From NCBI GenBank assembly GCA_043808285.1, contig JAZDFA010000012.1, positions 312-64,311 of the forward strand: a DNA stretch of 64,000 nt, read 5' to 3'. A program made the translations under genes and the position numbers. Every line of letters begins with the position of its first letter. Position 1 is the first letter of the stretch. This stretch comes from an archaeon (GTDB lineage Archaea; Nanobdellota; Nanobdellia; Pacearchaeales; DTIR01). Under the pieces are notes generated by a model, which worked only from the letters and a program-made list of their open reading frames with translations, had not been told where the DNA came from and ran no database searches. This document shows positions 27,970-49,036 of this stretch, in pieces.

Positions 27970-28479
27970 TCATAACGTAATTGTATTGTCAGCAAACATT
28001 TCCAAGTCCTTGACAAGCGTTTGGGCTATGTCTTCTTTTGGGCAGGGAAAAATGCCTTTGCATGATGAGTTTCTTATCTTCCCTATGACTGACTGGGCAA
28101 ACTGTATCACAAGGATTTCTTTGTTGTATGCAAGAAGGGTTGAAAGCGAGTCGAATATGATAGCATCAACTTTCTCTTCAGCCAATAATTTCGTTATAGA
28201 CAAGCTAATTCTGAATAAATCGCTTGGCGAGGATACTGGGATGCAGTTTTTTATTTCCCCCCGGCATTGAGATATGCAGTCAACAAATGCTATTTTGTCT
28301 TCATCTATCTTGCCTTTTAAGAGAGAAGAAAGAACTGCAGGAGACCTATTCAAGCAGACATATCCTATTTTTTTGAATTTTACCTCTTTTAGAATCTTTC
28401 CGATCTCATTGGAATATTTATTGTTAGGTATCAACAATAGTGTTATCTGATTACTTTCTATTTCCTTTTTTATCTCCAT
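27970..28479 (-). CDS. KaiC-fold protein lacking a P-loop (DUF835-like), paralog
   Basis: This 169-aa protein carries IGYVCLNRSP, AFVDC, SPSDL, IIFDSLSTLLAYN and DLEMFADNTITL. Confidence 0.6.
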   Translation of the reverse strand: MEIKKEIESNQITLLLIPNNKYSNEIGKILKEVKFKKIGYVCLNRSPAVLSSLLKGKIDEDKIAFVDCISQCRGEIKNCIPVSSPSDLFRISLSITKLLAEEKVDAIIFDSLSTLLAYNKEILVIQFAQSVIGKIRNSSCKGIFPCPKEDIAQTLVKDLEMFADNTITL

Positions 28480-29275
28480 TTTTTTCTTTCTCGCTGATTT
28501 TTCGATATTTTTCCTGCATCAATGGAAGCAGCTCTTCAATTTCTATTATCCTTTGCTGGTATCTCTCTATTGATTGGGTATACCTTTCTTTAGACATCGA
28601 ATTTGTCTCGAAATAATCCTGCTGTGCTTCTTTTATAAGAGAGATTATTGTTTCTTTCTCTTTTTTAAGATTCCTTATCTTCACTTTCAGGATTATTGAT
28701 GATGCTATCCTGCCAATGAGCGACAATATTATAATTGCCGCTATAAAAGCAGGGATTAGTATATACCAGTATTTCTTGAGAATATAAATAGCTTTCTCTC
28801 TAATCTGCGTTTTTCTTATTGATTTAATAAGGAAGGGCTGGCTTTCAATCTCGTTTATCTTTTGATATATGTTTTGGATTGTGTTTTCAGCATCTTCGTA
28901 CCTGTTTTCATCCAATGCATTTTGCCCAGCAGCAATCTCTTCAGAAAATTCATCTTTTTGCAGGTATTTCGATTCTGCTATCTTCTGTTTTGTCTTGTTT
29001 ATGAAATCAGTTATCACAATTGCCCTGTTTTTTGAATCTGCTATCTGCTGTGTTAATTCAGAGACAGATTCATAATCTCCCTCTTCGAAGTAGGAATAGG
29101 CCTCATTAAGAAGGTCATTTGCATAATGGGTGGTAAGCCCTGCATTTCTCATTTCCATTACGCTTTGATTCGCTTTTTCAAGAAGAGGGAGGGCATCTTC
29201 TTTGGAAATAGCTGAAACAAGATTAGACACAATCAGAAATGAAATAACGAAAACAGCGATTAATTTGCCATTCAT
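28451..29275 (-). CDS. membrane-anchored protein: signal peptide, helical hairpins, TM, cytoplasmic SHOCT-like coiled coil
   Basis: The signal peptide is LIAVFVISFLIVSNLVSA. The helical motifs are AYSYFEEGDYESVSELTQQ and NALDENRYEDAENTIQN. The TM helix is ILIPAFIAAIIILSLIG. The tail LIKEAQQDYFETNSMSKERYTQSIERYQQRI is homologous to the tail of the 1374-aa protein. Confidence 0.7.
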   Translation of the reverse strand: MNGKLIAVFVISFLIVSNLVSAISKEDALPLLEKANQSVMEMRNAGLTTHYANDLLNEAYSYFEEGDYESVSELTQQIADSKNRAIVITDFINKTKQKIAESKYLQKDEFSEEIAAGQNALDENRYEDAENTIQNIYQKINEIESQPFLIKSIRKTQIREKAIYILKKYWYILIPAFIAAIIILSLIGRIASSIILKVKIRNLKKEKETIISLIKEAQQDYFETNSMSKERYTQSIERYQQRIIEIEELLPLMQEKYRKISEKEKNGDKKGNRK

Positions 29276-29655
29276 TTTTTTGCCATTATTATGCCTCCGG
29301 CATTGTAAAGAGTGAGTGTTATCTCGCTGTTTTTAGGAGTGATACAAAAGTTTTCAGCAGTTTCGAGGGTAGATATATGGAAAGAAGATATTTTACCGTT
29401 TTCTATGAGATAGAGAACATCATCTTTCTGCATGAAACATACCCTTTCTATGCTTTTCTCAAGAGAAACTGTGTATTTCATTTCGAATCCCTTGCTTAAT
29501 AATCTCATCTCGTCAACTTTTCTTTGCATGAATATAACAAACTCTTCAGAAGGGATAGTCCCAGCACTGTTATTTTTTGATAATAGATAATACGCAGAGA
29601 ATCCTATTGCAATCAATGTTGCAACCAATATCACAATCTTAATCTCTTTTTTCAT
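29272..29655 (-). CDS. small N-terminally anchored protein
   Basis: This 127-aa protein has the N-terminal helix IVILVATLIAIGFSAYYLL and overlaps the downstream gene by 4 nt. Confidence 0.55.
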   Translation of the reverse strand: MKKEIKIVILVATLIAIGFSAYYLLSKNNSAGTIPSEEFVIFMQRKVDEMRLLSKGFEMKYTVSLEKSIERVCFMQKDDVLYLIENGKISSFHISTLETAENFCITPKNSEITLTLYNAGGIIMAKK

Positions 29656-29662
29656 TTCTATA

Positions 29663-32600
29663 TCATGATTTCTTCTTGTTTTCTATCATTTTTATCTGCT
29701 TTTTCAGGTCTATAATTCTTTCGTTATACCCTTCTGATATCTTTTCATAGGCAGAATAGGGAATCTCCTTCCTGTCATAATAACTTGTTTGGAGCTCTTT
29801 TAATGTTTCTTCTATCCTGCAGGACTCTTCTTTAAGCGCTTTCAAATTGCCCTTGTTCTTTATCTGCGAAATAATCTTCGTCCTTGTCTTTAGAGTCTCT
29901 ATTTCTATTGCAGCCATATCCTCCCGATACTTATTTATTGTCTTGTTATAAAGTGCCTCCCCGATTATTCTTTTTTCAAAATACGCTTCCTGTGCCTGCT
30001 TCATCAATTCCAAGATTTTTTCTTTCTTTCTTTTAAACAGCACAATTCTTCTTTTAGACAAAATGATTAATGAGGACTTAGTAATTACTGCAAGCAACAC
30101 AAATACCATGAAAAGCCCTGCTATTGAATACTGCCAATATTTAATTGCAAGATTAAACAGGTACATCATGTCGACAGGTTCACTCTTCTCTATCTCACTT
30201 ACAAGAAGGGCCTGATTTGCCATCTTTAATGCCTCATTATAATCTCCCATGCCGAAAGAATCTATTGCCAATCCTAGAATTTTTATTGTCTGGGAAACAT
30301 CAGCACCGCTAATAATAGCATTTTCTATTCTTTTTCTGCTTTCATTTATCAAATCAGCAGCTAAAACAGCTTTTTCCTTGTCTTCGATAACCTGTTCTGA
30401 AAGTTGGTAAGCTTCCTTGAATCTTCCATCATTAAAAGCTCGGTCTGCCTTGTCAATTATGCTGCTTAAGTAGAATGTGCTATATCCTCTTTCTTGCAAG
30501 GAACTAATGGATTTTTTTGCATCTTTCAATTTGGAAAGGGATTCGTTCCTGTCGAATTCATTTATTGTAAGCAGGAATGTTTTGCTTCTTGTTATTGTTG
30601 AATTGCCGCTTTGGGCATCAACAGAGAAGTTAAGCGTGTATTTCTGATACTGAGAGTATATCGGAGCTTCAATGAGAATAGTGAAATATGTGCTTTCATT
30701 ATATTCCAATCTCACTATTTTATTTGGAGAAATTTTAAAATAATCTTTTTTGTAACCTATCAACTGGGCAGTTATATTTCCTAAACTATTCGTTTTCTCA
30801 AGGGATGTTATTTTTGCCTTTATTGTGACATTCTTCCCACTTATAACCTCATTATCTGAGGAGATAGTTAATAATAATGTGTCAGAGATTATAATTGTTG
30901 TTCCTCCACCGCCCCCTCCTCCCCCTCCAGTACTCCCGCTTGTGCCACCAGAAGGGGTTGATGGGGGATTACTTACCGTAGTAGTTTTCGTGTCAGAATC
31001 AGAAGCTCCCTCACTGCAGTTTACATTAACGCTTATTGATTGGGTGCCGGTAGAAGCAGTGCTTCCTATATCTACTGAAACAGAGTGAGTTGTCAGACCC
31101 CCCACACTAAGATTGCCTATGCTTTCACTGAGATGTCTTCCTGTCCATCCAGAAGGAATTGTCCAGCTAATATTAACATTAGTGGCGGTGGCATTTCCAA
31201 GATTATAAATTGTAGCAGTCATATTGCTTAAATGGTCTCCGATGGTAACAGTTGAATCGTAAACAGTTATCAACGCATAAAGATGTGGGCCGGAAAGATA
31301 GGTTGAGAGGGTTGTATTAGAAAACCTAAATCTGGGGGAGGCAGTATCATTTGTAGAATTCACAAGAACTTTTATAGCATATTCTGAGGCAGTCAGAGGG
31401 CAGGTAGCATTTACTTCCAATACCTTAATTTGTTTTGCACTAAGCGAGAAAGAACTACTTTCATTGAACCATATTAAAGGGGTGGTGCCATAAGAGCTTA
31501 ACTGGAATTCCAAGGCATAATCTCCAGTATTATTTATTGTAAGATTAAAAAGAGTAATATTTGTTTCTATTACTCCACCGATTGCATCTGTTGTTGCGGG
31601 GGAGAGAATCCAGGAATAATCGTAGTAAACAGACACATTTATTGCATTGCTGCTATTAGCATTATTTGACCAATCTTTTGTCAGGATTTTGAAACTCCAA
31701 TTTCCTTCGCTGTTAGGGGTTATATTCTCGATAAAAATATTAAGAGAGGAATTTATCATGCTTTGATTAGTCCACGAGGATTCTGTTGAATTCTTATACT
31801 GAAGTGTTGCATTTGCAACACCTCCAAAATCAGTGATATTCACAGTAATAGACAAGAGAATATTTGGGTCTATTACATCAGCATTACTGGGAGTATAAGA
31901 AACAGACTCTATAATCGGGGAGAATGTGTCATTAACTGTAAAGTTGATCGCTGAGGTGTAATTCTGGTTATTCAATGAGTCGTTTAGATATATCCTAAAT
32001 GAGATGTTTCCTGCTCTGGAGGGGGAGAAGGTATAATTGTAAAGATTGCTTCCCTCATAATTCATAGTATGGTTAGCAGAATCATATTCCACAGATACAC
32101 TAGAAACATAACTTCCTTGGTCAGTTACAGTAACTTTAATTGTCTGATTATTCCCCACCTCTATACTTGATGAATAAGTAATATTGCTGTAGGCTGGCGC
32201 AATGTTATCCAAGCTGAAAGATATTGAAGAAACTTCAAGATGACCCAAGGAATTAGCGGCATATACTGTAATATTGTTTAAGCTGTTTATTGATATCCTA
32301 TCCCTGTATCTGTAAGAGTCATAAATCCTGAAAAGAAAATCCCTTGAACTATTAATGCTTGATTCTCCGAAAGGATATATTCCATTGTCGTTTGTTTCCC
32401 ATTCGTAATGATTTGATGCAGAACTGCTTCCATTCAGGAAAATCCAGTATTTTGTATTTGCCTGAATCCTTACAGTTGCATTCAAGGTTATATTCACCCA
32501 TGTGAAGCCCGCAGTATCTATGCTGCTATTACTGAAGTTGCCTATGCCTATTACTGAATTTAGAGGTGTAGAATTTCCAATCATTATTTGAACCGTTGCA

Positions 32601-33787
32601 TTCTGGGAACCTGTTCCGGCCATTCTCAGCCGAATAGAGATATTTGATATGTCCATTGTTTCCTGGGGAGTAAATGACTGGGAGATATTGAGGTAGTTCT
32701 CATTAGATTCGTTAAGCCCTGAATCGCTGGAATCAAGAGAGATATTCAATACATTCGAGAGAGTGGTATTCCCAAGATAATTAAGGTTGTAGGAAACAAG
32801 ATTGATTGTCGAGTTTGCATCATTGGAGATTATGGTGAGATTTAAATCAATGAGAGTAGCATTGAACAAGCTGCCATTTGAAGGGTTCACAAATGTTATT
32901 GTGATATTTGGAAGAATATTAACTGTCCTTTTTGTAGTGATATTCTGATTGCCGTAGGTGTCATTGACAATCAGATAGTAGCTGTATTGCCCGGCAGACA
33001 GCCCGTATTTTGTTATATTGGTATAATTGCCGATATAGTAATAAGTTTCATTAGCCCCGTTCCAATTCAGAGTTATAGTATCTGGATGAGATTCTACATG
33101 AGAAACATTTATCAGGAATGTCCTGGATGTCTGGTTGCTGTTATTAGCAGGAGTGGGAGAGATTATGTCAACTAATGGATTTGTAACATCCGGAGACTCT
33201 GCCTGAACAAGAAAAGTTACATCATCTGTATCAGAATAAATTTCATGACCATTATAACCGCATGTTTGGTTTGAGGCAGCAGTATATGCTATAGCCCCTC
33301 TTATTGAATGATTTCCTGCTAGGTTATCTAGAGTTATGTTTATACTTTTATTGACCCATGATGCAGTATTGCATGTAGCCCCATATATTACTTTCCAGAG
33401 ATTTGGATTTGATGAGCAGTCTTCTGTGCTGTTGCAATAAACTATATTCATCATGTCATATGCATCATTGTCACAATTATAGCTGACAATTATCTGAACT
33501 GTATCTCCCTTAACAAAAATGCTCCTGTTAAGTGAGGTGATAAATATGTCATGAACCCATTCCCAAACAACCTCACTCCCATCAGAGCAGGAATCAATGG
33601 TGTTCCATCCAGGTTCGGCAGGGGCGGTATTTCTTATGCCATCTGAAGTAACTCCCCGACAATTTGTTCCACAGGAGCACGGGGAAGAAGTGCAGAAATT
33701 TCCAGTAGTTGCATAAACAGAATTAGAAAAAAATAGGAGGAGGAGTATAGCTCCCAAGACATAACACCATTGTTTTATCTTTATCAT
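29663..33787 (-). CDS. giant sequon-rich surface protein (1374 aa) with poly-Gly hinge, Ig-like domain, helical hairpins, TM and cytoplasmic coiled coil
   Basis: The signal peptide is LGAILLLLFFSNSVYA. The protein has dense N-x-S/T sequons, Ig-like repeats (D.F.P.I....Y.P...) and a CARDB-like LTINNTGDYALEF segment. The hinge is GGTSGSTGGGGGGGGGTT (~30900-30965). Helical motifs are RAFNDGRFKEAYQLSEQ and SFGMGDYNEALKMANQA. The TM helix is IAGLFMVFVLLAVI. The tail carries two SHOCT-like motifs. Confidence 0.9.
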   Translation of the reverse strand: MIKIKQWCYVLGAILLLLFFSNSVYATTGNFCTSSPCSCGTNCRGVTSDGIRNTAPAEPGWNTIDSCSDGSEVVWEWVHDIFITSLNRSIFVKGDTVQIIVSYNCDNDAYDMMNIVYCNSTEDCSSNPNLWKVIYGATCNTASWVNKSINITLDNLAGNHSIRGAIAYTAASNQTCGYNGHEIYSDTDDVTFLVQAESPDVTNPLVDIISPTPANNSNQTSRTFLINVSHVESHPDTITLNWNGANETYYYIGNYTNITKYGLSAGQYSYYLIVNDTYGNQNITTKRTVNILPNITITFVNPSNGSLFNATLIDLNLTIISNDANSTINLVSYNLNYLGNTTLSNVLNISLDSSDSGLNESNENYLNISQSFTPQETMDISNISIRLRMAGTGSQNATVQIMIGNSTPLNSVIGIGNFSNSSIDTAGFTWVNITLNATVRIQANTKYWIFLNGSSSASNHYEWETNDNGIYPFGESSINSSRDFLFRIYDSYRYRDRISINSLNNITVYAANSLGHLEVSSISFSLDNIAPAYSNITYSSSIEVGNNQTIKVTVTDQGSYVSSVSVEYDSANHTMNYEGSNLYNYTFSPSRAGNISFRIYLNDSLNNQNYTSAINFTVNDTFSPIIESVSYTPSNADVIDPNILLSITVNITDFGGVANATLQYKNSTESSWTNQSMINSSLNIFIENITPNSEGNWSFKILTKDWSNNANSSNAINVSVYYDYSWILSPATTDAIGGVIETNITLFNLTINNTGDYALEFQLSSYGTTPLIWFNESSSFSLSAKQIKVLEVNATCPLTASEYAIKVLVNSTNDTASPRFRFSNTTLSTYLSGPHLYALITVYDSTVTIGDHLSNMTATIYNLGNATATNVNISWTIPSGWTGRHLSESIGNLSVGGLTTHSVSVDIGSTASTGTQSISVNVNCSEGASDSDTKTTTVSNPPSTPSGGTSGSTGGGGGGGGGTTIIISDTLLLTISSDNEVISGKNVTIKAKITSLEKTNSLGNITAQLIGYKKDYFKISPNKIVRLEYNESTYFTILIEAPIYSQYQKYTLNFSVDAQSGNSTITRSKTFLLTINEFDRNESLSKLKDAKKSISSLQERGYSTFYLSSIIDKADRAFNDGRFKEAYQLSEQVIEDKEKAVLAADLINESRKRIENAIISGADVSQTIKILGLAIDSFGMGDYNEALKMANQALLVSEIEKSEPVDMMYLFNLAIKYWQYSIAGLFMVFVLLAVITKSSLIILSKRRIVLFKRKKEKILELMKQAQEAYFEKRIIGEALYNKTINKYREDMAAIEIETLKTRTKIISQIKNKGNLKALKEESCRIEETLKELQTSYYDRKEIPYSAYEKISEGYNERIIDLKKQIKMIENKKKS

Positions 33788-33804
33788 TCATTTATTTTTC
33801 CTTT

Positions 33805-34671
33805 TTAGGGTTTTGCTTTTATTTCTTCCACGAAAATATCCTCTGAAGGGTATATTTCCATGCCTTTCCCCTCTATAATATCAAGAGGCACTATCTTCTT
33901 CTTATGCTGAGCGCCTCTTAGTTTCACTATCTCCATTGCACTTGTCCTATTGCCGCCCTGAACAAGGTTATAAAAAGAGATTATAGCATCTGCCAAAAAT
34001 TCTTCAACACCTGAATTGCTGTATCTTTCTGAAGTTTGCTGAACCTCACTTATAAGGAATGAAGTAACATTCAATTTTTCAAGGACTTTAAAGAGCTGTT
34101 CTATATAGACCCTGTAACCGTCTTCTTTTCCAATGAATGCGGCAGATATAGCACTAAGAGAATCAAGAACAATTATTGAGGGGGTAAATCCTGGAGGAAT
34201 AAGCTCCTTGATGTGGTCTATTTTTATCAAAAGCTCTCCTCTTGCTTCGGCAAGAAGCCCTTCTATAGAACGGGAGATTAAGAACGGATCCATTCTTTTT
34301 ATCATAAGAGTTCCTTTTTTTTCAAGTTCATCTGGTTTGAGACCATATTTTCTCATATGTTCCTTTAATCTTTCCTCGCTTTCTTCGAATGAGAGATAGA
34401 GGCACTTTTCGTTTCTTGAAGCAAGATTATTCAAGAGATGAAGGCAGAAAGTTGTTTTTCCAGTTCCGGGACCACCGCAAACCAAGATAGAAATACCTCT
34501 TGGTATTCCTCCCTCAATCATCTGATCAAATCCGGGGATACCCAAATTGAGCTTATCAGAAACCTCCTTCACTGCTTTTTTATTTTGCTTTTTATTGTTT
34601 TTCAGAGAAACCTTTTTTGCTTTCTTCAACTTATTCATGCCTTTTTTACTAATATGCCCTCTTTTCACCAT
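33805..34671 (-). CDS. KaiC-like ATPase with a basic N-terminal extension
   Basis: GIPGFDQMIEGGIPRGISILVCGGPGTGKTTFCLHLL contains Walker A. IIVLDSLS is the Walker B-like segment. It is the first gene of the minus-strand surface module. Confidence 0.85.
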   Translation of the reverse strand: MVKRGHISKKGMNKLKKAKKVSLKNNKKQNKKAVKEVSDKLNLGIPGFDQMIEGGIPRGISILVCGGPGTGKTTFCLHLLNNLASRNEKCLYLSFEESEERLKEHMRKYGLKPDELEKKGTLMIKRMDPFLISRSIEGLLAEARGELLIKIDHIKELIPPGFTPSIIVLDSLSAISAAFIGKEDGYRVYIEQLFKVLEKLNVTSFLISEVQQTSERYSNSGVEEFLADAIISFYNLVQGGNRTSAMEIVKLRGAQHKKKIVPLDIIEGKGMEIYPSEDIFVEEIKAKP

Positions 34672-34763
34672 TTTTTATGTAAAGATAAAGCGCTCTTTAT
34701 TTTAAAATCCTTTCTTTTTGCATTATTTCTCTTTAGAGGGTTTTTAAGAGAATAATAATTCTT

Positions 34764-35160
34764 TTTTACGCCCCAACTAATTCATCCACGAGTGTTCAAC
34801 GTTTTCTAATGGACGTGGTTGTTTAGCAGTGTAAGGAGTAGGGCTCACCGAATTGTTTTTTCTTGCTTTGCAGATAAAAATTTATTCTGATTCAAAACAA
34901 AAGAAGAAGCCCCATCTTTTCTGCCTTACTCCATTAAAACCTAAAAACGTCGAATAATTAGAAATTTTTAATAGTTGTATTTTTCCGCTTTTAGCAGTTT
35001 CGGAGTAATGGCTTACGAATTGTTTTTTCTTGGTTTTGAAGAGGGGAGATTTTTTTATACTTGAATTATCCAAGAAATTTTACCCTTAAGAATCCTTTTT
35101 GCCCACCTTTACTGCCCCCTAACTAACTAAACGACAGATAATTAGTAATTATAAACAGAA
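34764..35160 (+). repeat. intergenic repeat family, locus b (two shortened units)
   Basis: Its sequence runs tttacgccccaac...ccacg...cgtgg, gtttagcagtgtaaggagtagggc + T6, tttgcaga, ctgccttactcc, cgaataattag, ttttagcagtttcggagtaatggc + T6, acttgaatt, ctttactgccccctaac, acgacagataattagtaatta. It lies between divergent genes. Confidence 0.7.
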
Positions 35161-35254
35161 TAAGTATCTAATACTTTTCCTCTTGGTTAACTTTATATAT
35201 CTTTTTAACCTCTTCATACAAGGTAAAAAATGACGATTAATAAGGAGTAATTAA

Positions 35255-36130
35255 ATGGGCAAAAATTGGATTATTTTTTGCATAATTTTGATAGTTGCAA
35301 ACTCATTTGTAGGAGCAGAAATATTCATTGATTATGACCATGAGGCGATGCTGATGCCAGATTCAAGCGTAAATCTGCCTGTTTTAATAACAAATTTTGG
35401 AGGCAGCATGATGGAGGCAGAGGTAACATGCAGTTATCCTAGCAATATAACTACGAAATGCATAGATTCACTAACTCTAAATCCTTATGAGATGAAATCA
35501 ATAAATCTTGTTGCAAAATCTGGAGGAGATTTGGGAGTATTTCCGCTAGGTTTCAAAATAGGCGATTTGCTGGGAAGCATAAACATAAGGGTTAGCAACG
35601 CTCCTGTCTCTTTATTGAATATACTTAATGATTACAATTATTCCTTGTCGGAGCTAAAGAAAAGCGAGAGAACAAATGCAGAAGAAATAGAAAATGCATT
35701 ATTCTCGCTAGGTAATGCGTATTCTTTTTATTCAAATGGCAATTATTACAAGGCGAATGAATTGGCTGGGGAACTGGGATTGAAACTTGGAAATCTTTCG
35801 AAGAAAACATCTGAAGTGGAGATATCAAGAGTTAGAGGGTTAGTGGGCTTCTCAATAGCAGACACTGCAGACAATATTTATACCTCTGCAGAGCCATACT
35901 CTTATCTTATAATCCCCCTAATATTAGCAGTTTTTATTGCATTGGCAATAATTTCACATAATCTTCCTAAGGCGATAAGAAAGGAAAAATTAAGCTTTAG
36001 GCAAGGAATATCCGGAGTAAGCAAGGAGTTAATACCAGAGAGAATAGAACAGAAAACATTTAGAAATCCTTTTAGAAAATCAAAGAATAAAAAGAAATCT
36101 AACAGCATGCTAAATGAATTATTTGAATAG
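35255..36130 (+). CDS. anchored surface protein: signal peptide, Ig-like domain, helical hairpin, TM, basic tail
   Basis: An AAGGAG Shine-Dalgarno site precedes the ATG. The signal peptide is IIFCIILIVANSFVGA. The CARDB-like segment is VNLPVLITNFGGSMMEAEV. The helical motif is AYSFYSNGNYYKANELAGE and the TM helix is LIIPLILAVFIALAII. Confidence 0.75.
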   Translation: MGKNWIIFCIILIVANSFVGAEIFIDYDHEAMLMPDSSVNLPVLITNFGGSMMEAEVTCSYPSNITTKCIDSLTLNPYEMKSINLVAKSGGDLGVFPLGFKIGDLLGSINIRVSNAPVSLLNILNDYNYSLSELKKSERTNAEEIENALFSLGNAYSFYSNGNYYKANELAGELGLKLGNLSKKTSEVEISRVRGLVGFSIADTADNIYTSAEPYSYLIIPLILAVFIALAIISHNLPKAIRKEKLSFRQGISGVSKELIPERIEQKTFRNPFRKSKNKKKSNSMLNELFE

Positions 36131-36159
36131 ACTTAATAATCAAAAAAACAGAGGTGAAA

Positions 36160-37893
36160 ATGGCGAAGAAAAAACAGAGGACAATAGGCGACCAGCTTAA
36201 AGAAGAGGGGATGATCCAAGAACCTCAAAGAACAGATGACGAGGTTACTGTTGAGAAGAAAACAGAATTGAGCGAGCTTATTGTAAAAATAGACAGATTA
36301 GAAGGCAAGCTGGAGATGTTAAAAGAGGTTAGCGATGCCATTAATTCAAGGATTTCTGATATAAATGAGAGGATGGGAGACCTAAGAAGAATGGTCCTTG
36401 ACAGCGAGCAGGTTGTAGGAGAATTGAAAGCCAGTTTTGAGAAAGTAAAGGATATAGTAAAGGAGCTTGAGCCCCAGAAACTTGTAAGGGACTTGCAGAA
36501 ATTCGAAGGAGAGATGACAAACGGGAATGCAAAAATAGAGAAAGCAGGCATAGCTGTAGAGAATTTCAACCAGAGAATAAAGAGAATTGAAGAAGAATTT
36601 AACAAGATAAAAAGCTTTGACAATATGGTTGATGTCTTGAAAAGAATAACTGAAAAAGAAAAGGGGATAGAGGAAGCAAGGAGATATGCAGACCGGGTCG
36701 GTGCAAAAGTAGATTCAATATTCTCAGATATCAATGAAAAAGTTGCAGAGCTTACACAAGAGAGGCTTACTATTGTAAATCTAGATGAACTCTCAAATAA
36801 GATGGTAAAGGATTTAGCAGATTTGCAGTTCAAATTTAATGAGAAAACTCTAAAAAAAGATGATTTGGAGATGGTGAAGGAAACAATTGCAAAAGATATT
36901 GTAGGGATAAATCCCCTTTCTTTTGAATCCTTGAGAAAAAAGGTTTCATTGATTGAATTTCAGGCAAAAACAACTGATGAGCTAGAAGAAGAAAAGAAGA
37001 GGCTGCAACATCTGCTTGACACTGCAAAAGCTGATTTTGATGCAAAAAAACTGAGCCCAAAAAGCTACGAGGAGCTAAGGAATGCATGCCAGATAAAAAT
37101 TGCAGAGGTTGAAATTACACTTGCAAAGAAAAAAGCACCCAAGGATAAAAATGCAAAAGAGCTCAAAGAAGAGATTACAAAAGCGATTAAAGAAGAGATA
37201 ACACAAGGAAAAATAAATGAGAAAAAGGAAGAAGAGAAGAAGGAAAAAGAGCAAGAGAAAAACAAAAAACATGTAAAAGAAAAGAAAGCGATAATACATA
37301 AATTAAGAGAAGCAGTCCATAGCAGCAAGGGAAGAAGGATAAAGAAAAAGGAGATAAAAATTTCTGCCAAGAGGGAAACAACAACAAACAAAGAACTTGA
37401 ATCTCTTCTTTTAACAGAGGCAGTAGCCAAAGATGAATTGTTTAGCAAGCTAAAAGAAGTATACGCTCCTGCAAAAGAAAAAAAGAAATCCCCTCAAAAA
37501 ACAAAAAAAAGGAAGGAAGAAAATATTACACCCCTTGTAAAAATACCTATTCAGGAGGGTAATAACGAAAGGAACAAAGTAGAAGAGCATGTAGAAGAAA
37601 CACTTCTGGAAGAAGAAACAACTTCAGAAGAAGAGCAGCCAATCCAAGAAAACAAGCAGAAAGCAGAGAAAGAAGAAAAAGAAGAAAAAGAAGAAAATGA
37701 TAATTCAGGATCTCTAGAAGAAAAAGAGAAAATAGTTGAAGAATTAATGAGGGAAGCGGAAGACGATTCAAAAAAATTGGAAAATGCGCTGCATGAGATG
37801 GAGAAGAGAGATTCAGAGGTAACAGCAAGCAGCGAAAAGCGGGATAATTTCTTTGCAAGATTCAGAAAGGTTTTGGGAAAAAAGAATAAATAA
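36160..37893 (+). CDS. cytoplasmic K/E-rich coiled-coil protein with a SHOCT-like motif
   Basis: The ATG at 36160 is preceded by GAGGTG; the ORF track starts at a GTG at 36154. Long heptad-like stretches are present. AKADFDAKKLSPKSYEELRNA resembles the tails of the anchored proteins. The C-terminal half is low-complexity K/E. There is no TM helix. Confidence 0.75.
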   Translation: MAKKKQRTIGDQLKEEGMIQEPQRTDDEVTVEKKTELSELIVKIDRLEGKLEMLKEVSDAINSRISDINERMGDLRRMVLDSEQVVGELKASFEKVKDIVKELEPQKLVRDLQKFEGEMTNGNAKIEKAGIAVENFNQRIKRIEEEFNKIKSFDNMVDVLKRITEKEKGIEEARRYADRVGAKVDSIFSDINEKVAELTQERLTIVNLDELSNKMVKDLADLQFKFNEKTLKKDDLEMVKETIAKDIVGINPLSFESLRKKVSLIEFQAKTTDELEEEKKRLQHLLDTAKADFDAKKLSPKSYEELRNACQIKIAEVEITLAKKKAPKDKNAKELKEEITKAIKEEITQGKINEKKEEEKKEKEQEKNKKHVKEKKAIIHKLREAVHSSKGRRIKKKEIKISAKRETTTNKELESLLLTEAVAKDELFSKLKEVYAPAKEKKKSPQKTKKRKEENITPLVKIPIQEGNNERNKVEEHVEETLLEEETTSEEEQPIQENKQKAEKEEKEEKEENDNSGSLEEKEKIVEELMREAEDDSKKLENALHEMEKRDSEVTASSEKRDNFFARFRKVLGKKNK

Positions 37894-37900
37894 ACATCAA

Positions 37901-40900
37901 ATGAAGAATCTTGTCGTAGAAGAAAAAAGGAAAGCATTATTGCTAATTCTAGTTGCAACTATCTTTTTTCTTTCAATCAATCTTGCAAGCGCAACAGGTT
38001 GGTGGGATGCAAAATGGCAGTATAGGATTGGGGTAGAGATAAATTCAATGGCATACAGCAGGACTGACTGGCCGATAGAAATAGAGCTTAATTTTACTTC
38101 TCTCTTATCAAATTTTTCAGGATATTTTGACAGGAATTCAACAAGGCTGGAGGAATGCAATTCTTCCTGGGATGATCTTGCAGAAATAAGAAGCCAATTT
38201 GATGAGGGAGATAATTTCAATGAAACAACCAATGCAATTGGAACGTTTGTTTTTCTTATGAATGGCACAACAGAAGGAAATAACTCTAGATTTTATTACA
38301 TTTATTTTGGGACAACTGATTTAAGAAAAAGCAATATAACCTACTATTCTAATTTCTCCTATGCTGGAACGAACGAGGAGGAATTTAACGTGAATCTTAC
38401 AATCGGAAGCAAGGGGCTAAGATTTTATGGAGATACTAGAAGAGGAGAGAATTCTTCAGGACTTTACAAGGTCCAAGATAACATAGGAAATAACCTCTTT
38501 AATATCCCCCCATCAAATGAGAACACTATAGAATATATCCAATACACCAATGGGACATCAAACTTCACATTTGATTTAAGAAACAGCACCATATTTAGGC
38601 ATGCAGGGCCAATCAGAGTGGTTATAGAACAGATAGGAAATGAAACTCTCTGGAATGATTACGGCACAATATCTGAAGGAAGGATGACAAAGAAATATAC
38701 CTTCTATGCAGAAAATCAGTGGATAAAGATTGAGACTAATTTCACTAATAATGCAGCCTATACAATAAACAGAAGCTCAACTCCTTCTGGCGCGGTAGTG
38801 ATAAATATTTTAGCTGCAGGATTATACAGTGATTTGACATATGGAAATTCCTCAAATCCAGGTTCATGGTGGTGGTATCCAAATCCTCTCCCCGTAAGCA
38901 GGCATATAGGAGTAATACAGATTAACTCTTCATCAAATTTCTTTTCATCAAATAGAAGCGAGTTAGGCAGGGGGGGAATTGAACTGCCCCCTACTTCTAT
39001 CAACACAGGAGAATCAGTATGGATGAGGGCCGCATTTCATTTCAATAGCCCAGTAGATATAGGGGGCTCGCCAAGTGACATACAAATTGAGGACCTTAGA
39101 AATAGATTAACTATAGCTGAGAATGTAACACTCTTTCCTTTGGAGAGATGGGAAGCAAGAGCAGAAACCTCAGTAGACTACACAATATACAATAGGGGAG
39201 AGAATGCATTGATAACAATAAATGTGAGCTATGACTCCAGCGGGGTAGTCTCAAAACTCAACTCAAGTTTCATAACCTCTTTTGGAGACAACTACACAAT
39301 CGTATTATATGATGATGGAACTCATGGAGATGCCACTTCAGGGGACAAGAATTTTACAAATTACTTTAACATCTCCTCAACAGAGAATCTTGGGAGATGG
39401 AATGTGACTTCTTATGTATATGATTCTACAGGATTTTTTCTCAATAAGAGTTATTCTTTCTTGAATGTGACTGAAGTTTATGATATAACAACTGTTATAG
39501 GAAATCCAGTAGGGCTGACTGAAAGACAAGTGAATGTAAGCATTCATGTGAAGAATTATCGGAAAGATACATTTGTGATGAATGCATCCTTAAACTGCAG
39601 TTTTTTGGGCACATTGCTCAATATAAATCCCTGGAATGGAAACGGAACATATGAATTTAATTTTACCGCTCCAGACTATTTTGGCTTATTTATACTTAAC
39701 TGCAGTGTTAACAAGTCTGGCAATCAGGGCTCAGATATAGATTATTTCCTTACAGAATCTCCAAATACGAACTTGAACATAACCTTTGAATATGTTATAC
39801 CTGGATGGAGTGCAGACAATGTAACTCTAGAGGGAAATGAATCATTTGAACTGAAGGTTAATCTAAGCAATATAGGGAACAGCACGGCATACAACTCCAA
39901 TGTAACCTTTGCATTACCTCTGGGGTGGAGCGCAAATGAGACAATTTATTTTTTTGGCAACATATCTGTTTCAAACTCAACAACAAGAAAAGTTCTACTA
40001 ACTGTTGGAAACGGAACAGCCCCTTCAATATACCTAGTTAATGCAACAGTCAATTGGTCCAATCTTGCAGATGTGAGCAGAACAACCAATTCCTCGTTTA
40101 ATGTTACGGTCAATGCAAATCCTCTTCTAAACGTTTCAGAAGAACTTATACTTGCTATAACCCCCCCAGGACAAATAACTCCGGTAGGAAATTTCACAAT
40201 ATACTCAATAGGAAACGCAAATATCTCCCTTATAACCTATAATATCACTTCGGTAGGATGGAATAATGGAGTAAACATAACTTTCTCACCCCAAAGCATA
40301 TCAGATTTTGCAATAAGAAATTCATCAAAAGTCCAGATTAGCGTTGCAGTCCCACTCAACCATACTGGAGGATTTTTCAACGGGACTGTGAACATCAATT
40401 CCTCAACAGGGGGATTTGATAATTTGACATTAAGGATAATGATTCCATTGACTAACATGAGCATTATAGCATCCCCCGAAAATGTCACAATAACAAACAT
40501 GAGATGGTTTGAATATCGAAATTTTTCCATTTCTGTAAATGCGACAAACACAGAGTCAGCCACAGCATATAATGTCAATATAAGCGTTCAATTGCCAGCC
40601 TATTGGACAAGCGAATCAGCACTCAACACATCATCATGCGGAGATATGGGGATTAATGATGTCTGTAATGCAACATTCAGCATACTGGCAAAAAAGAGCT
40701 TGGCAGGAAATCACACATTCAATGTTACTGTGAGATGGACTAATCCTGGTGTGGGAGTAGCATCAAATACGACGATTGTAGGAGTGACAGCAAATGAAAA
40801 TCCTGAATTCTTAGTAAGCAACAGTTCAGTTGATTCTGCAAACAGGACTGCAGAGCATGGCACACAATCGCTTGTTGGCAATTTCACATTAAAATCTATA

Positions 40901-43714
40901 GGGAATGCCAATGTTCTGCTTGAAAATTATCTTGTGTTAGGATTCTCAAGTAATCTAAGCGTTACATTCAATCCAACAATAGCTCAATTTTCAATCCTAT
41001 CCCCCGGCCAAAACAGGACAATAAATGTTTATGCAAATATAACAGCAGGAACTCCTGCGGCAGAATACAATGGAACAATAAACATAACTACATTCAATAA
41101 CGGCTCGAATCTTATCACAATGAATGTTACCATTCCTTTAAACAGGTCATGGACTCTAAGCAAAGTTCCAGCAGAATGCAGCAAGGTTACATTCGAGGAT
41201 GAAGCAACTGTATGCAATATCACCATCAACAACAGGGGAAATACAAACATAAATTTCTCAATAAATGTAACCCAAACAAACTGGAATAATGTAGTGAATG
41301 TAACTTACGCAAATGAAACCTCATTTATCCTCCCCACGCAGCAATCAAAGACAATCTCTATATGGTGGAATGTTACAGGGATAGTAAAAGCATTCTATCT
41401 TACCAACTATAGTATCATTGGTTTTGGTGGCAATCCTGCAAACAGAACAATAAATGTTTCATTGCTTCCTTATTCTGCGCCAATAATCAATGCAACAACA
41501 AATAGATCGGTAGAAAAGCAGACTGGTTCTGTGATGATAATAGCAGATGTCACAGACACCTCTGGAGCTGGGATAATTCTTGCAAGAGCAATTGTAACTA
41601 ATCCTTTGGGGGAGGAATACACCACAGATATGACGTTGACAACAATTAATGACATGATATACACTTATCAATTGGAATATCCCCAAGCCTGGGCTGAATC
41701 TGACAATTATGGATATTATAATGTCAGCATTTCTGCTACAGATGGCGTTGGGATGACGGGAGCAACAAATACCTCTTTCTATCTGCATCCAGTAATGAGT
41801 GGCGTAACAAAGAGCGGATGGAATGATTACTTCCTGGGGGAATCAGGCTCTGTGTACTGCAATGTAAGTGATATTCTCGGGGGACAACTGCTCTCCAATG
41901 TCACAATCTCAGTTTACAACTCTAAAAATTTAATGCTATCCAACGGGTCATATGTTACAGGTGTGAATGGGACATTGACAACAATTCCAACATTTAACAT
42001 TCCCTCCGATGGCTCAACTGGGAATTATACTTTATCTTGCAAGGGAGATTATACTCCTCCAGTTTCAATGAGTTCTTTGCCTAATTTTGCCTCAAATTAC
42101 AGCTTTGAGGTGCATGAAAGATATAATGTAGAATTTGAAACTGCGATAGTGTGGTATCTTTCAGAGACGATAATGACATTCTATATAATGCTTTACACAG
42201 ACAACCAGATAGAAGAGCCAGACTGGATAAATTTCACAGTTTATGACCCTGCACAGCAGGTTTATTTCCAGGACCATGACAAGGCAAATTTCGGAGTAGT
42301 GTCAAGGACGAATACTAGCATAATCTACCGTTACCAGCATACAATATCTCCCACTACAGTTGCGGGATATTACTTGGCAGACCTCTCACTGCATCAGGGA
42401 AGCAGGCAGACAAAGAAAATAAAAACATTCAGATTTTCTGAAGGCGGCCCATACGACTTGGTTATATCCAGATTGCAGTCAGAAGTAGAGAGGGGAGGAA
42501 CACAAAATTTCACGATATTGCTTGAGAACATGGGAGATGTTCCTCAAGATGTTTATTTGGATTATTGGATATCCTCGCTAGATAATTCAACAATTTATGC
42601 CTCTGTATACAACCAGCCAGTTTTTGTTGATGCTGGGGCAAACAGGAGTTTTGACAGAAGTTTGAATATATATTCTGACCAGTCAGTAGGAGATTATTAC
42701 TTGCATGCAAGAATGAGGTATTCCACAATAAAACCAATGCTTCATACCCAGCAGAGTTTTAGAGTTAAAGAAGCAACACAATCTCAACCCCCAGTAATAA
42801 CTCCTTCTGGTGGCGGCGGTGGCGGGGGAGTTGTTTATCCAAGGGCAGCAGCTACAAACAGAACAAGAATAATGAATATTTTCCCTTCTGAACTATTGAT
42901 TGAAAGGGGGGGGATAGCGTATGTAATCATGGAAGTGAAGAATATTCATTCATCAGAGATATACAAGGTTTCAAGCATGTTTGGGGGAATTCCCTTTGAC
43001 TGGTTTGATACTATTAGAGAGATAGATATGCTAGAACCCGGAGCTTCAGGATATATAATAACCAAATTTAAAATTCCTTCGGATACCCAACAGAATGTAT
43101 ATCCTAGCAAGCTCAAAGTAAGCGCGATAGGAGCAGACGATTTGGCACAAGACTATAATATAGAAGTATTTGAGTCAAAAGAGGAATTGCTAAATGCCAA
43201 GATAAAGAAAGCTAGGGAACTCTTAATTGTTCTAGAAACAAAATCAGGAGAGGTTGCACAAGAGGGAGGAGATGTAACAAATGTTTTTAGGCTATTAGAG
43301 AGGGCAAACAGCCTAGTAGAAATAAGCGAAAAATATCTTGCTGAAAAAAGATTGATAGAGACAATGCAGAGTGTTGAAGAGGCATCTAATGTTTTAGAAC
43401 AGGCGAGGTATGAATTATCAATTGCAAAACCCATCAAGTCAAGGATTGTTTCAATAATCCCTGTATGGGTATATATTATAGTGGGAGTATTTGTAATTAC
43501 CTCTTCGGTTACTGTTGTGCTGCTGCGACACTTGTTCAAGAAGAAAATAGCTGAAGTGGCAAAGATTGCAACAGACAAGATTGTTGAAAAGAATGAAGAG
43601 AGCAAGGCACCCCCAACTTCAAAGGATTTGATAGACATGATAAGGGGGCAATATGAATCAGGCCACTTGTCAAAAGAGGCTTATAATGAATTAAGAAAGA
43701 GGTATTTGGCTTAG
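37901..43714 (+). CDS. giant sequon-rich surface protein (~1938 aa) with DUF2341-like N-terminus, CARDB/Ig arrays, poly-Gly hinge, TM and SHOCT-like tail
   Basis: I prefer the ATG at 37901, right after the upstream TAA; the track ORF opens at 37853. The signal peptide is ALLLILVATIFFLSINLASA. TGWWDAKWQYRIGVEI matches the W..W.YR DUF2341 start. CARDB-like segments include LSNIGNSTAYN, TIYSIGNANISL, INNRGNTNINF and LENMGDVPQDV. The hinge GGGGGGG is at 42809-42829. The TM helix is IIPVWVYIIVGVFVITSSVTVVLL and the tail is MIRGQYESGHLSKEAYNELRKRYLA. Confidence 0.9.
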   Translation: MKNLVVEEKRKALLLILVATIFFLSINLASATGWWDAKWQYRIGVEINSMAYSRTDWPIEIELNFTSLLSNFSGYFDRNSTRLEECNSSWDDLAEIRSQFDEGDNFNETTNAIGTFVFLMNGTTEGNNSRFYYIYFGTTDLRKSNITYYSNFSYAGTNEEEFNVNLTIGSKGLRFYGDTRRGENSSGLYKVQDNIGNNLFNIPPSNENTIEYIQYTNGTSNFTFDLRNSTIFRHAGPIRVVIEQIGNETLWNDYGTISEGRMTKKYTFYAENQWIKIETNFTNNAAYTINRSSTPSGAVVINILAAGLYSDLTYGNSSNPGSWWWYPNPLPVSRHIGVIQINSSSNFFSSNRSELGRGGIELPPTSINTGESVWMRAAFHFNSPVDIGGSPSDIQIEDLRNRLTIAENVTLFPLERWEARAETSVDYTIYNRGENALITINVSYDSSGVVSKLNSSFITSFGDNYTIVLYDDGTHGDATSGDKNFTNYFNISSTENLGRWNVTSYVYDSTGFFLNKSYSFLNVTEVYDITTVIGNPVGLTERQVNVSIHVKNYRKDTFVMNASLNCSFLGTLLNINPWNGNGTYEFNFTAPDYFGLFILNCSVNKSGNQGSDIDYFLTESPNTNLNITFEYVIPGWSADNVTLEGNESFELKVNLSNIGNSTAYNSNVTFALPLGWSANETIYFFGNISVSNSTTRKVLLTVGNGTAPSIYLVNATVNWSNLADVSRTTNSSFNVTVNANPLLNVSEELILAITPPGQITPVGNFTIYSIGNANISLITYNITSVGWNNGVNITFSPQSISDFAIRNSSKVQISVAVPLNHTGGFFNGTVNINSSTGGFDNLTLRIMIPLTNMSIIASPENVTITNMRWFEYRNFSISVNATNTESATAYNVNISVQLPAYWTSESALNTSSCGDMGINDVCNATFSILAKKSLAGNHTFNVTVRWTNPGVGVASNTTIVGVTANENPEFLVSNSSVDSANRTAEHGTQSLVGNFTLKSIGNANVLLENYLVLGFSSNLSVTFNPTIAQFSILSPGQNRTINVYANITAGTPAAEYNGTINITTFNNGSNLITMNVTIPLNRSWTLSKVPAECSKVTFEDEATVCNITINNRGNTNINFSINVTQTNWNNVVNVTYANETSFILPTQQSKTISIWWNVTGIVKAFYLTNYSIIGFGGNPANRTINVSLLPYSAPIINATTNRSVEKQTGSVMIIADVTDTSGAGIILARAIVTNPLGEEYTTDMTLTTINDMIYTYQLEYPQAWAESDNYGYYNVSISATDGVGMTGATNTSFYLHPVMSGVTKSGWNDYFLGESGSVYCNVSDILGGQLLSNVTISVYNSKNLMLSNGSYVTGVNGTLTTIPTFNIPSDGSTGNYTLSCKGDYTPPVSMSSLPNFASNYSFEVHERYNVEFETAIVWYLSETIMTFYIMLYTDNQIEEPDWINFTVYDPAQQVYFQDHDKANFGVVSRTNTSIIYRYQHTISPTTVAGYYLADLSLHQGSRQTKKIKTFRFSEGGPYDLVISRLQSEVERGGTQNFTILLENMGDVPQDVYLDYWISSLDNSTIYASVYNQPVFVDAGANRSFDRSLNIYSDQSVGDYYLHARMRYSTIKPMLHTQQSFRVKEATQSQPPVITPSGGGGGGGVVYPRAAATNRTRIMNIFPSELLIERGGIAYVIMEVKNIHSSEIYKVSSMFGGIPFDWFDTIREIDMLEPGASGYIITKFKIPSDTQQNVYPSKLKVSAIGADDLAQDYNIEVFESKEELLNAKIKKARELLIVLETKSGEVAQEGGDVTNVFRLLERANSLVEISEKYLAEKRLIETMQSVEEASNVLEQARYELSIAKPIKSRIVSIIPVWVYIIVGVFVITSSVTVVLLRHLFKKKIAEVAKIATDKIVEKNEESKAPPTSKDLIDMIRGQYESGHLSKEAYNELRKRYLA

Positions 43715-44335: not shown

Positions 44336-44369
44336 AATCATAATTAAAATAATTTCTGACAAAGAAAAA

Positions 44370-44735
44370 GTGAAATCAATTTTAGAATTAACAAGAGAAA
44401 GAGAAGATTTTGTTTCTACAATTGACCATGAAAAGTTCTCTACAAATGTCTCTGAAAATTATTATGAAATAATTAAAGAATTGGCCAATGCCTTATTGCT
44501 TTTAGATGGATTAAAAACAACAGGAGAATATGCACATAAAGACTTAATTGATTACCTGATAAATTATAAAGAATTTAGGGAATCAGATATTTTGTTTATT
44601 AATGATTTAAGGATAAAGAGAAATAATAGCGCATACGATGGCAAAAAGATTGATCCCAGCTATTTGACTAATAATAAAAATAGGATATTAGAACTGACAG
44701 AGAGATTGAAGAAGATAATTAGAAAGAAATTGTAA
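44370..44735 (+). CDS. HEPN-domain protein (partner of the MNT)
   Basis: It lies immediately downstream of the NTase gene. It is helical and carries LRIKRNNSAYDG, an R-x-x-R-N-containing HEPN-like motif with Y in place of the usual H. The start is uncertain: GTG at 44370, and the frame is open back to 44337. Confidence 0.6.
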   Translation: MKSILELTREREDFVSTIDHEKFSTNVSENYYEIIKELANALLLLDGLKTTGEYAHKDLIDYLINYKEFRESDILFINDLRIKRNNSAYDGKKIDPSYLTNNKNRILELTERLKKIIRKKL

Positions 44736-48991: not shown

Positions 48992-49036
48992 CAAAAGAAT
49001 TTTAAATAACATTATCTGATTCTTATATAAATAAAG

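Follow-up and report, generated by a model that had tools for sequence, protein, structure and literature searches.

A helical stalk, transmembrane helix and tail module shared by surface proteins of uncultured archaea

How are the giant surface proteins of uncultured archaea held in the membrane, and do their anchors reach partners inside the cell? DPANN and related archaea have almost all escaped cultivation, their large surface proteins are believed to mediate attachment to hosts, and we know of no established mode by which DPANN surface proteins are anchored or linked to the cell interior. The question is raised by a 64,000-nucleotide stretch from a Pacearchaeales archaeon (GenBank assembly GCA_043808285.1, contig JAZDFA010000012.1, positions 312 to 64,311; hereafter the window), which is AT-rich (~36-39% GC). 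Besides an archaeal type IV pilus locus and several KaiC-like ATPase genes, it codes for proteins of very large size that are rich in N-x-S/T sequons. An earlier reading of the letters alone (the original prediction) had proposed that five of the encoded proteins, here called p274, p291, p1374, p1953 and the HerA-fused giant G4378, share a modular stalk-base cassette made of a poly-Gly hinge, an immunoglobulin (Ig)-like domain, helical hairpins, a single transmembrane (TM) helix and a SHOCT-like cytoplasmic tail, the tail motif recurring in a soluble coiled-coil protein, p579. As judged from sequence profiles, the helical-TM-tail part is a module that is uncatalogued by curated families and widely conserved in uncultured archaea. 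On balance we think it probable that two related sets of membrane-anchored surface glycoproteins use one homologous anchor cassette, a pedestal whose tails would dock cytoplasmic partners.

A Widespread Module Uncatalogued by Curated Families

Two neighboring genes on the reverse strand carry the clearest copies of the module. p1374 (29663-33787) is a sequon-rich surface protein with the full C-terminal cassette, and p274 (28451-29275) is a stand-alone module, with an N-terminal hydrophobic helix (residues 3-24), two helical bundles (23-153), a TM helix (169-198) and a tail motif (199-251). The C terminus of p1374 matches p274 in BLASTP at E 4e-16 over 243 residues, and all other pairs among the compared window proteins are weak (E 0.01-10). 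A profile of these two sequences (alignment A2), scored against 1.84 billion representative proteins, matches 1345 protein clusters (50% identity) at E<=1e-3, 432 at E<=1e-10 and 20 at E<=1e-30. The top 150 matches all have E<=5e-17, most of them spanning stalk, TM helix and tail, and the module is placed at or near the C terminus in proteins of 237-4065 residues. The exhaustive profile search was needed, as a word-indexed homologue search with p274 returned itself as the sole match. Named relatives of p274 and p1374 include Aenigmatarchaeota and Hydrothermarchaeaceae, and members are publicly annotated as "hypothetical protein" or "TPR repeat protein". Scans of ten members and alignment A3 found the module outside every Pfam and NCBIfam model, with only sub-threshold noise from TPR, DUF4398, YfdX and coiled-coil models; in the PDB, neither the cassette sequences nor the tail profile had a meaningful match, the mineralocorticoid receptor matches at E 0.02 being chance.

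Against mod1, a module hidden Markov model (HMM) built from foreign sequences, in which members carry one or more collinear bundles, then a Trp and the TM helix, then the tail motif, p1374 scores E 3e-63 and p274 E 2e-59 (193.9 bits). Sub-HMMs for the single parts, again built from foreign sequences only, give the two proteins 49-70 bits for bundle 1, 29-49 for bundle 2 and 41-65 for the tail, scores reached by none of 300 local shuffles. The stalk of p1374 consists of two tandem bundles (residues 1077-1201; 30185-30559, reverse strand) that contain RAFNDGRFKEAY and SFGMGDYNEAL and score 48.8 bits with each of the hair1 and hair2 models (0/300 shuffles). It is followed by the TM helix (residues 1222-1244; 30056-30124) and by a cytoplasmic tail (29690-30052) with two copies of a bi-helical motif, residues 1246-1297 and 1315-1366, that score 40.8 and 29.1 bits with the foreign tail HMM. 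Across the family the stalk consensus is two repeats of "(G)(F/L)d.s.a..ll..A..af..gdY..A" and then "yWw" and the TM helix, and the tail consensus, a unit of ~50 residues, is "L.kEE..I..LiKeaQ..YF..k.iSk.eY...m..YekRLaeIk". Conservation within the module is sharpest in the tail, where one Gln is invariant and one Tyr nearly so, and up to three copies of the tail are present per protein. A hydropathy scan finds one C-terminal TM helix in each of G4378, p1374, p274, p291 and p1953, as had been claimed, and no TM helix in p579.

The similarity could in principle be compositional, that is, Lys/Glu-rich coiled coils, a generic TM helix and a generic Ig domain with no common origin. The weak pairwise BLASTP values of p1953, p291 and p579 and the many weak coiled-coil matches in Pfam scans fit this explanation, which we nevertheless hold to be very improbable: shuffled sequences do not reach the scores of p274 and p1374, the parts keep a fixed collinear register and, as described next, a conserved distance from the hinge. 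With the profile evidence given below for p1953 and p579, the compositional reading, which the original prediction had itself named as the outcome that would undo it, has already been ruled out for p274, p1374 and p1953 and for the motif of p579, and is possible for p291 and the Ig domains of G4378.

A Gly-rich low-complexity tract lies upstream of the module in 69 of the 103 family proteins that have at least 200 residues ahead of their first module, and in 62 of those 69 the tract ends 107-139 residues before the module, a distance that equals one Ig domain. An Ig HMM built from 62 foreign proteins, with the consensus "...RGe..sF.I.VtN....L.Nv.Lsv.G...Y..I.P", matches residues 967-1070 of p1374 (30578-30889, reverse strand) at 61.9 bits (E 5.9e-19). 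Because the spacing is fixed and the intervening domain has a profile of its own, the succession of hinge, Ig domain, helical part, TM helix and tail is genuinely conserved as an architecture rather than a chance arrangement of this locus. The proposed modular stalk-base cassette is thus supported, and it recurs as a composite in many uncultured archaea.

Hinges Keep Their Position and Change in Length

The three hinges lie exactly where the original prediction had put them, at 11216-11311 in G4378 (32 residues of Gly, Ala and Glu), at 30902-30949 in p1374 (GGTSGSTGGGGGGGGG, with nine Gly in a row; reverse strand) and at 42809-42829 in p1953 (G7; forward strand). They are GC-rich islands, with 71-86% GC in their DNA against the ~36-39% of their surroundings. 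Among relatives the position of the hinge is kept, and its length and composition drift. Hinges of the p1374 type have two to nine Gly (2-6 in orthologues, at the same site), those of the p1953 type are G7, GGGPGGGGGAGAA, or Pro-, Ala- or Glu-rich linkers of differing length, and the giant's hinge of 32 residues in G4378 compares with 11 in the corresponding protein of L007, a locus from an Aenigmatarchaeota metagenome-assembled genome. Length and composition therefore do differ between orthologues. The mechanism proposed for such change, slippage, is poorly supported: the Gly codons are mixed, as in the p1374 hinge (GC 0.71), and the longest perfect tandem is 8 bp in two of the tracts and 21 bp (AGGCGG x 3.5) in that of G4378. 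From the repeat structure, then, ongoing slippage is plausible for the giant's hinge alone.

Directly before the hinge, a Cys-rich motif, CG.G.C...C..DC, is present in G4378 (~11130-11215; ...YICGNGVCEELTGESTATCPRDCP), in the L007 giant and in the p1374-type proteins of loci L001, L009, L010 and L011, and is missing from p1374 of the window. It may form a disulfide-knotted cap where the ectodomain ends.

p1374 and p274 Are Fused in Relatives and Adjoin KaiC-Like Genes

In several relatives the two genes are one. The 1466-residue protein L1_1466 of locus L001 aligns over residues 322-1099 with p1374, to the last residue of the latter, and over residues 1103-1369 with p274. The hydrophobic helix at the N terminus of p274 is the counterpart of the internal TM helix of L1_1466 (1101-1121) and may for this reason be an uncleaved signal anchor. 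The fused form, ~1400-1466 residues long, is found in L001 (7186-11586), L009 (6001-10203) and L010 (3221-7429), and the split form in L011 (2634-6786), with the same gene order as in the window (28451-33787). Two full modules are present in 43 of the top 150 family members, and an extra TM helix lies between the modules of such proteins, so that the chain returns to the outside, both helical stalks are extracellular and all tails are cytoplasmic. By alignment, p1374 and p274 are the split form of these two-module proteins. Since a single polypeptide holds both modules in relatives, p1374 and p274 most probably act together, with their modules paired in the membrane. Farther upstream p1374 has a NEW3 domain (residues 855-923 in the Pfam scan), and its orthologues carry Laminin_G_3.

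The two genes form part of a gene set, here Set A, with the order KaiC-like ATPase, p1374, p274 and two DUF7504-type proteins without Walker A, all on the reverse strand. The KaiC-like gene (33805-34671, 288 residues) is immediately upstream of p1374 in the same operon; its product matches PF06745 at 169.8 bits (E 8e-50), above threshold, has the Walker A sequence GGPGTGKT, and is 50% identical to L1_258. A KaiC-like gene adjoins the p1374-type gene in the window, in L001-L003 and in L009, L010 and L011, loci that range from 35% to 52% GC. Scanning the contigs of genomes with the 288-residue KaiC protein added only three distant loci (L004-L006). The first DUF7504-type open reading frame (ORF; 27970-28479, 169 residues, PF24336 E 6.6e-6) overlaps the p274 stop by 29 nt. 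The second (27192-27728, 178 residues) has no Pfam match at E<=0.001 and was assigned through BLASTP to L1_192 (44% identity, E 2e-55) and L1_178, for which precomputed Pfam annotation gives a weak KaiC/DUF835 and a weak DUF7504 match, respectively. DUF7504-type genes without Walker A are also near the module gene in L001 and L009. Single-domain KaiC-like ATPases and degenerate relatives reportedly lie beside archaeal membrane and surface-structure genes, and to our knowledge the roles of KaiC-like ATPases in archaea are largely unknown. Neither the split-gene link nor the KaiC/DUF7504 operon link, nor the three-helix-bundle stalk described below, had been seen in the original prediction.

p1953 Belongs to the Family Through Its Orthologues

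The gene for p1953 (37853-43714, forward strand; called as 1937 residues in the public collection, from an ATG at 37901) encodes a conserved surface protein of ~1950 residues with a one-bundle cassette. It has 66 homologues, most of them full-length and of 1,640-2,100 residues, the best named relatives being from Candidatus Aenigmatarchaeota, Micrarchaeota and Altiarchaeota. By such names alone, the DNA would probably come from a DPANN member, most likely an aenigmatarchaeon, a placement that calls for caution in view of the gene content described at the end. Taken alone, p1953 scores E 0.5 against the module HMM, which is not significant and is what a merely compositional likeness would give. 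Its homologues decide the matter: 29 of the 66 match the module HMM collinearly at the C terminus, the closest two (45-46% identity) at E 2e-9. Profile-profile comparison of the orthologue C termini with the module family (hhalign) gives 98.1% (E 1.4e-13) and 97.8% (E 9e-13) over bundle 2, TM helix and tail, and the Ig domain after the hinge matches the family Ig domain at 98.5% (E 3.7e-15). In the window copy the G.Y..A signature is decayed and the tail truncated, which is why the (F/Y)xxGx(Y/F) motif had been reported as absent from this protein. By these comparisons p1953 is a divergent one-bundle member of the family, recognizable only through its orthologues.

After the hinge, p1953 continues with an Ig-like beta-sandwich (42863-43171; AlphaFold2 [AF2], Foldseek and hhalign), a three-helix bundle homologous to bundle 2 of the module (43178-43423; AF2 and hhalign), the TM helix (43439-43528; TM scan and AF2) and a C-terminal bi-helical tail (DLIDMIRGQYESGHLSKEAYNELRKRY; 43619-43708; AF2, a sub-threshold SHOCT match and the family-tail alignment), which is shorter than in orthologues.

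The genes for p1953, p579, p291 and the HerA-fused giant make up a second recurring cluster, Set B. In L007 a gene for a 4396-residue HerA-fused giant is followed by orthologues of p291 and p579 and by two small coiled-coil genes, and the p1953 orthologue is divergently oriented beside them; in L001 the order is giant, 608-residue protein, 1962-residue protein. The p579 gene (36154-37893, forward strand) is directly upstream of p1953, a pairing that recurs in relatives, and its end at 37893, with the called start of p1953 at 37901, suggests that the two are co-transcribed.

Between the KaiC gene and the gene for the 1962-residue protein, L001 has an ORF of 73-97 residues (12747-13037) that holds only the end of bundle 2 and the TM helix (E 2e-11), either a gene fragment or a mini-anchor.

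p291 and the HerA-Fused Giant Depart from the Plan

That one cassette is shared across five proteins is too strong a statement, because the relation to the family is marginal for p291 and for the Ig domains of G4378; the claim stands for p1374 and p274 and, through orthologues, for p1953. p291 (35255-36130, forward strand) has a signal peptide, a beta-rich domain, one helical bundle with YSFYSNGNYYKA (~residues 120-190), a TM helix (214-238) and a basic tail. It scores E 4e-4 against the module HMM, its bundle signature reaches 5.9 bits with hair1 (0/300 shuffles), and hhalign gives 56% for the bundle and 17% for the Ig domain. In L007 the plan recurs in an orthologue, L007_255, whose gene likewise sits between those of the giant and the p579-like protein. 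p291 is thus probably a reduced relative of the module.

G4378 (38-13174, forward strand; open to the window edge) departs from the plan as the original prediction had described. Its C terminus (11216-13171) consists of the hinge, two Ig-like domains (11312-11998), a TM helix (11999-12073) and a cytoplasmic HerA/FtsK-type ATPase (12074-13171), with DUF87 (PF01935) at 39.4 bits against a cutoff of 23.2, the Walker A sequence GTTGSGKT and a match to HerA of PDB entry 4d2i at E 6.4e-8. The module sub-HMMs find no helical module and no tail. The second domain after the hinge matches NEW3 at 27.3 bits, above the 24.4-bit threshold, and the Ig domains reach only 56-64% with the family Ig domain in hhalign.

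Giants next to module genes in relatives have 11,234 residues (L003 19921-20452, where the gene runs off the locus), 10,583 (L011 7376-12786) and 4,508 (L001 21055-21586); the L001 giant ends in a HerA-type ATPase as G4378 does.

The Predicted Stalk Is a Short Rod of Three-Helix Bundles

The AF2 model of p274 (17 sequences) is all-helical, with a predicted local distance difference test (pLDDT) score of 92.3. Its ectodomain helices (25-44, 50-64, 68-101, 107-122 and 126-168) are read as two three-helix bundles with common continuous helices, which would make a short rigid rod. Helix 170-222 holds the TM segment and continues into the cytoplasm, where a turn leads to the final helix (229-270). 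The hairpins of the original prediction are thus a conserved helical module, modelled as three-helix bundles joined by continuous helices and not as hairpins. The model of the p1953 C terminus (21 sequences, pLDDT 85.2) has a beta-sandwich at residues 19-121 (pLDDT >90), helices at 124-151, 157-178 and 182-205, a TM helix at 219-257, a disordered linker and a bi-helix at 271-300. In Foldseek the sandwich matches GH123 N-terminal, sialidase Ig and PapD-like domains at E 1e-7, so that the Ig-like domain placed after the hinge is borne out by fold in p1953, and in p1374 by the Ig profile match given above.

The rod resembles those of spectrin and EbhA in that consecutive three-helix bundles have a common continuous helix. 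It differs in having only one or two bundles, fused directly to a TM helix, and shows no significant match to them in sequence or fold. The A..F..G.Y..A signature of the module resembles TPR helix A, and weak TPR matches occur at E 1e-3; we rejected a TPR solenoid, since AF2 shows three-helix bundles and the best match, TPR_12, has 19.6 bits against a cutoff of 30.1. In SlaB of the Sulfolobales S-layer, beta-sandwiches, a helical stalk and a C-terminal TM helix likewise hold a glycosylated lattice above the membrane (as cited in bioRxiv 10.1101/2021.04.28.441871). The stalk of the cassette, however, consists of short three-helix bundles rather than a long coiled coil, and the cassette has a Gly hinge, a conserved cytoplasmic tail and a large ectodomain on the same chain; no sequence or fold relationship to SlaB was detected. 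The membrane-proximal sandwich is in the fold class of the NEW3 and CARDB domains (PF10633, PF07705), known from COG1470-type "uncharacterized membrane proteins". All three large proteins have NEW3 matches, which in p1374 and p1953 are clear and lie further upstream. The proximal domains of these two, in contrast, escape the Pfam models and form a conserved sub-family of their own; that of the orthologue L1_1962 reaches 20.2 bits with NEW3, against the threshold of 24.4.

In the accessible literature we found no description of the cassette, the 2017 KaiC survey by Makarova et al. in mBio lying outside that scope. Literature on DPANN with DUF87 and on Aenigmarchaeota with NEW3 yielded nothing relevant, and DPANN electron cryotomography papers make no mention of cassette proteins. 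Two candidates proved to be something else: the cassette proteins are distinct from the Micrarchaeota S-layer protein (101 kDa, PF05123), and their genes from the predicted secretion system of Makarova 2015 (arCOG01314/02884).

The Tail Motif Is Also Present in the Soluble Protein p579

p579 itself has weak SMC-like coiled-coil matches and orthologues in L1_608, L007_470 and P0229-P0235. Its residues 275-324 (...LLDTAKADFDAKKLSPKSYEELRNACQIKIAEVE...; 36976-37125) match the foreign tail HMM over its full length at 9.1 bits (0/300 shuffles) and the p1953-type tail HMM at 19.7 bits (E 6.9e-6 among the 229 window ORFs). In orthologues the motif scores 28.0 bits (P0234), 26.0 and 13.6 (P0231), 15.5 (P0229), 12.3 and 7.5 (L1_608) and 8.5 (L007_470), and the matches of 8.5-28 bits cover the full tail HMM, full-length coverage being seen in six orthologues, which argues further against compositional likeness. 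Among the 229 ORFs the motif is restricted to p274, p1374 (twice), p1953 and p579. The claim that the soluble protein bears the tail motif is therefore upheld, and from sequence it is plausible that the tails oligomerise with one another and with p579 as a soluble scaffold.

Whether the tail is SHOCT-like depends on what is meant. SHOCT domains and their relatives (PF09851, PF20612, DUF1707) are short, usually C-terminal helix-turn-helices, often placed after TM segments and also found on soluble proteins that work at the membrane; like the cassette tail of the p1953 type, they are amphipathic, with a loop Gly and a second helix of the form (I/L)(S/T)..E(F/Y). The loop Gly is strongly conserved in SHOCT, as is a Glu in helix 2 (PMC3581485). 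The p1953-type tail, with the consensus "..LEkEkeEGIIS..AY.ELKK", has both a loop Gly and an acidic residue, and its two predicted helices (271-283 and 289-300 in the AF2 model) show the SHOCT shape of ~30 residues in two amphipathic helices near the C terminus. The p1953 tail itself matches PF09851 at 13.2 bits (E 0.075) over profile positions 7-28 of 28, below the gathering threshold of 27 bits. Of 37 p1953-orthologue tails, 5 match SHOCT (best E 8e-4), 2 SHOCT_2 and 2 DUF1707, all below threshold.

From these nine matches, the bi-helical shape, the loop Gly, the (I/L)(S/T)xxx(Y/F) start of helix 2 and the C-terminal location, one may argue that the tail is a true, highly divergent SHOCT and the cassette another SHOCT-terminated membrane architecture, a reading that we regard as possible but on the doubtful side. 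No tail reaches the gathering score, and the tails of p274, p1374 and p579 have no SHOCT match at E<=10 in the Pfam scan. The tail of the p274 and p1374 type differs from SHOCT in its length of ~50 rather than ~28 residues (in the p274 model the helix-turn-helix, 199-270, takes up ~50 or more), in its invariant Gln and Tyr-Phe pair ("..aQ..YF..k.iSk.eY"), in the want of a conserved Gly, and in its up to three repeats and its link to one particular extracellular stalk. Moreover, the gas vesicle protein profile GvpG matches 12 of the same 37 tails (best E 0.009), more than SHOCT does, and short amphipathic profiles thus cross-match easily; the GvpG matches may reflect merely a shared amphipathic helix pattern. 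The "SHOCT-like" label of the original prediction is accordingly apt for a recurrent resemblance in shape and pattern, and membership in the family is not demonstrated.

A Proposed Anchor Pedestal with Docking Tails

The architecture suggests how the cassette would work. Outermost, the ectodomain would swivel on the low-complexity Gly-rich hinge. The family-specific Ig-like sandwich and one or two rigid three-helix bundles would fix its height, the bundles forming a short spectrin-like pedestal of ~5-10 nm (estimated from helix lengths), where "spectrin-like" describes the model and not a detected relationship, as the helical part has no significant Foldseek relative. A single TM helix, with a conserved Trp before it, would run straight into the cytoplasm, and one to three helix-turn-helix tails of ~50 residues, with the consensus "L.kEk..I..L.k.aQ..YF.k..iS..eY.....Y..RL.eI.", would serve there to dock partners. 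Through them the anchors would be linked to p579, whose sequence bears the motif too and whose gene is adjacent, and also to the inner face of the membrane and, in Set A, to the ATPase of the KaiC family with its degenerate partners.

The main rival is a passive anchor, in which the stalk fixes S-layer-like or adhesin proteins as SlaB does, the tail stabilizes the TM helix or lies on the inner leaflet, the p579 motif serves membrane localization and the KaiC neighbors are unrelated regulators. The architecture and the predicted rigid stalk suit it too. The roles predicted for SHOCT-like domains are binding to the inner leaflet of the membrane or assembly of sub-membrane complexes (PMC11237479). 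Three observations that weigh against docking tails also favor the passive anchor: the founding SHOCT study found no self-oligomerisation of the domain (PMC3581485); KaiC-like genes are plentiful, with four full-length copies in the window; and in L008 the p1953 orthologue stands alone among housekeeping genes, so Set B is not an obligate operon. With every SHOCT match below the Pfam threshold, the analogy to that domain may not transfer, and the link of KaiC-like genes to the cassette is one of synteny in five loci from uncultured organisms. The structure models are of monomers only, and Foldseek of the p274 model gave no match below E 0.5, spectrin and EbhA appearing only among the non-significant ones. 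Even so, we consider the passive anchor rather unlikely, since the tail is the sharpest-conserved part and present in up to three copies, which exceeds the need of a passive stop-transfer segment, and since the KaiC adjacency persists across loci of 35% to 52% GC.

A further step beyond the pedestal with docking tails would be a device for coupling across the membrane, confined to archaea of the DPANN type and related uncultured ones, in which contact or strain on giant glycosylated ectodomains, maybe host-contact proteins of episymbionts, passes via the pedestal and the TM-tail helix to tail arrays that recruit the p579 scaffold and the KaiC-family ATPase with its DUF7504-type partners. We rate this as speculative and improbable. 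If true, it would connect the archaeal cell surface with a KaiC signaling hub by an unrecognized route, outside-in or, if driven by ATP, inside-out, and the HerA-fused giant would be a variant with the motor fused directly to the anchor.

Whichever holds, a module of at least 1345 clusters that is absent from Pfam and NCBIfam now has a clear architecture and high-confidence fold models, and its profile could annotate thousands of "hypothetical" proteins. Gene fission and fusion predict pairing partners, which, together with the repeated operon link to KaiC-like ATPases, yields testable pairs: p1374 and p274 on the one hand and, on the other, the tails paired with p579 or with the KaiC and DUF7504-type proteins. 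Should the tail be a docking element, the SHOCT-like class would gain a defined partner.

Other Genes in the Window

Another surface protein is paired with a degenerate KaiC relative at 45398-49591, where a gene for a 1197-residue sequon-rich protein with a Ser/Thr/Gly-rich linker, a beta domain, a TM helix and a short basic tail is followed by a third DUF7504 gene (49037-49591); this pair has no helical module. The archaeal type IV pilus-like locus (50415-60840) comprises a T2SSE ATPase, two T2SSF membrane proteins and several small proteins with class III signal-peptide-like N termini, and is flanked by two tandem full-length KaiC-like ATPases (59424-60840) and a FecR-domain membrane protein (60909-62606). 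Directly downstream of p1953, at 43811-44735, a nucleotidyltransferase with an N-terminal winged helix-turn-helix (174 residues) and a 121-residue protein resemble a toxin-antitoxin pair of the MNT/HEPN type. In the stretch that separates the giant gene from the cassette operon, at 14275-17071 and 22090-24966, the window codes for a B12-binding radical S-adenosylmethionine (SAM) enzyme, a SAM methyltransferase, a FeeM-like N-acyl amino acid synthase and a sensor histidine kinase fused to a sodium:solute symporter domain, a gene set unusually rich for a DPANN genome.

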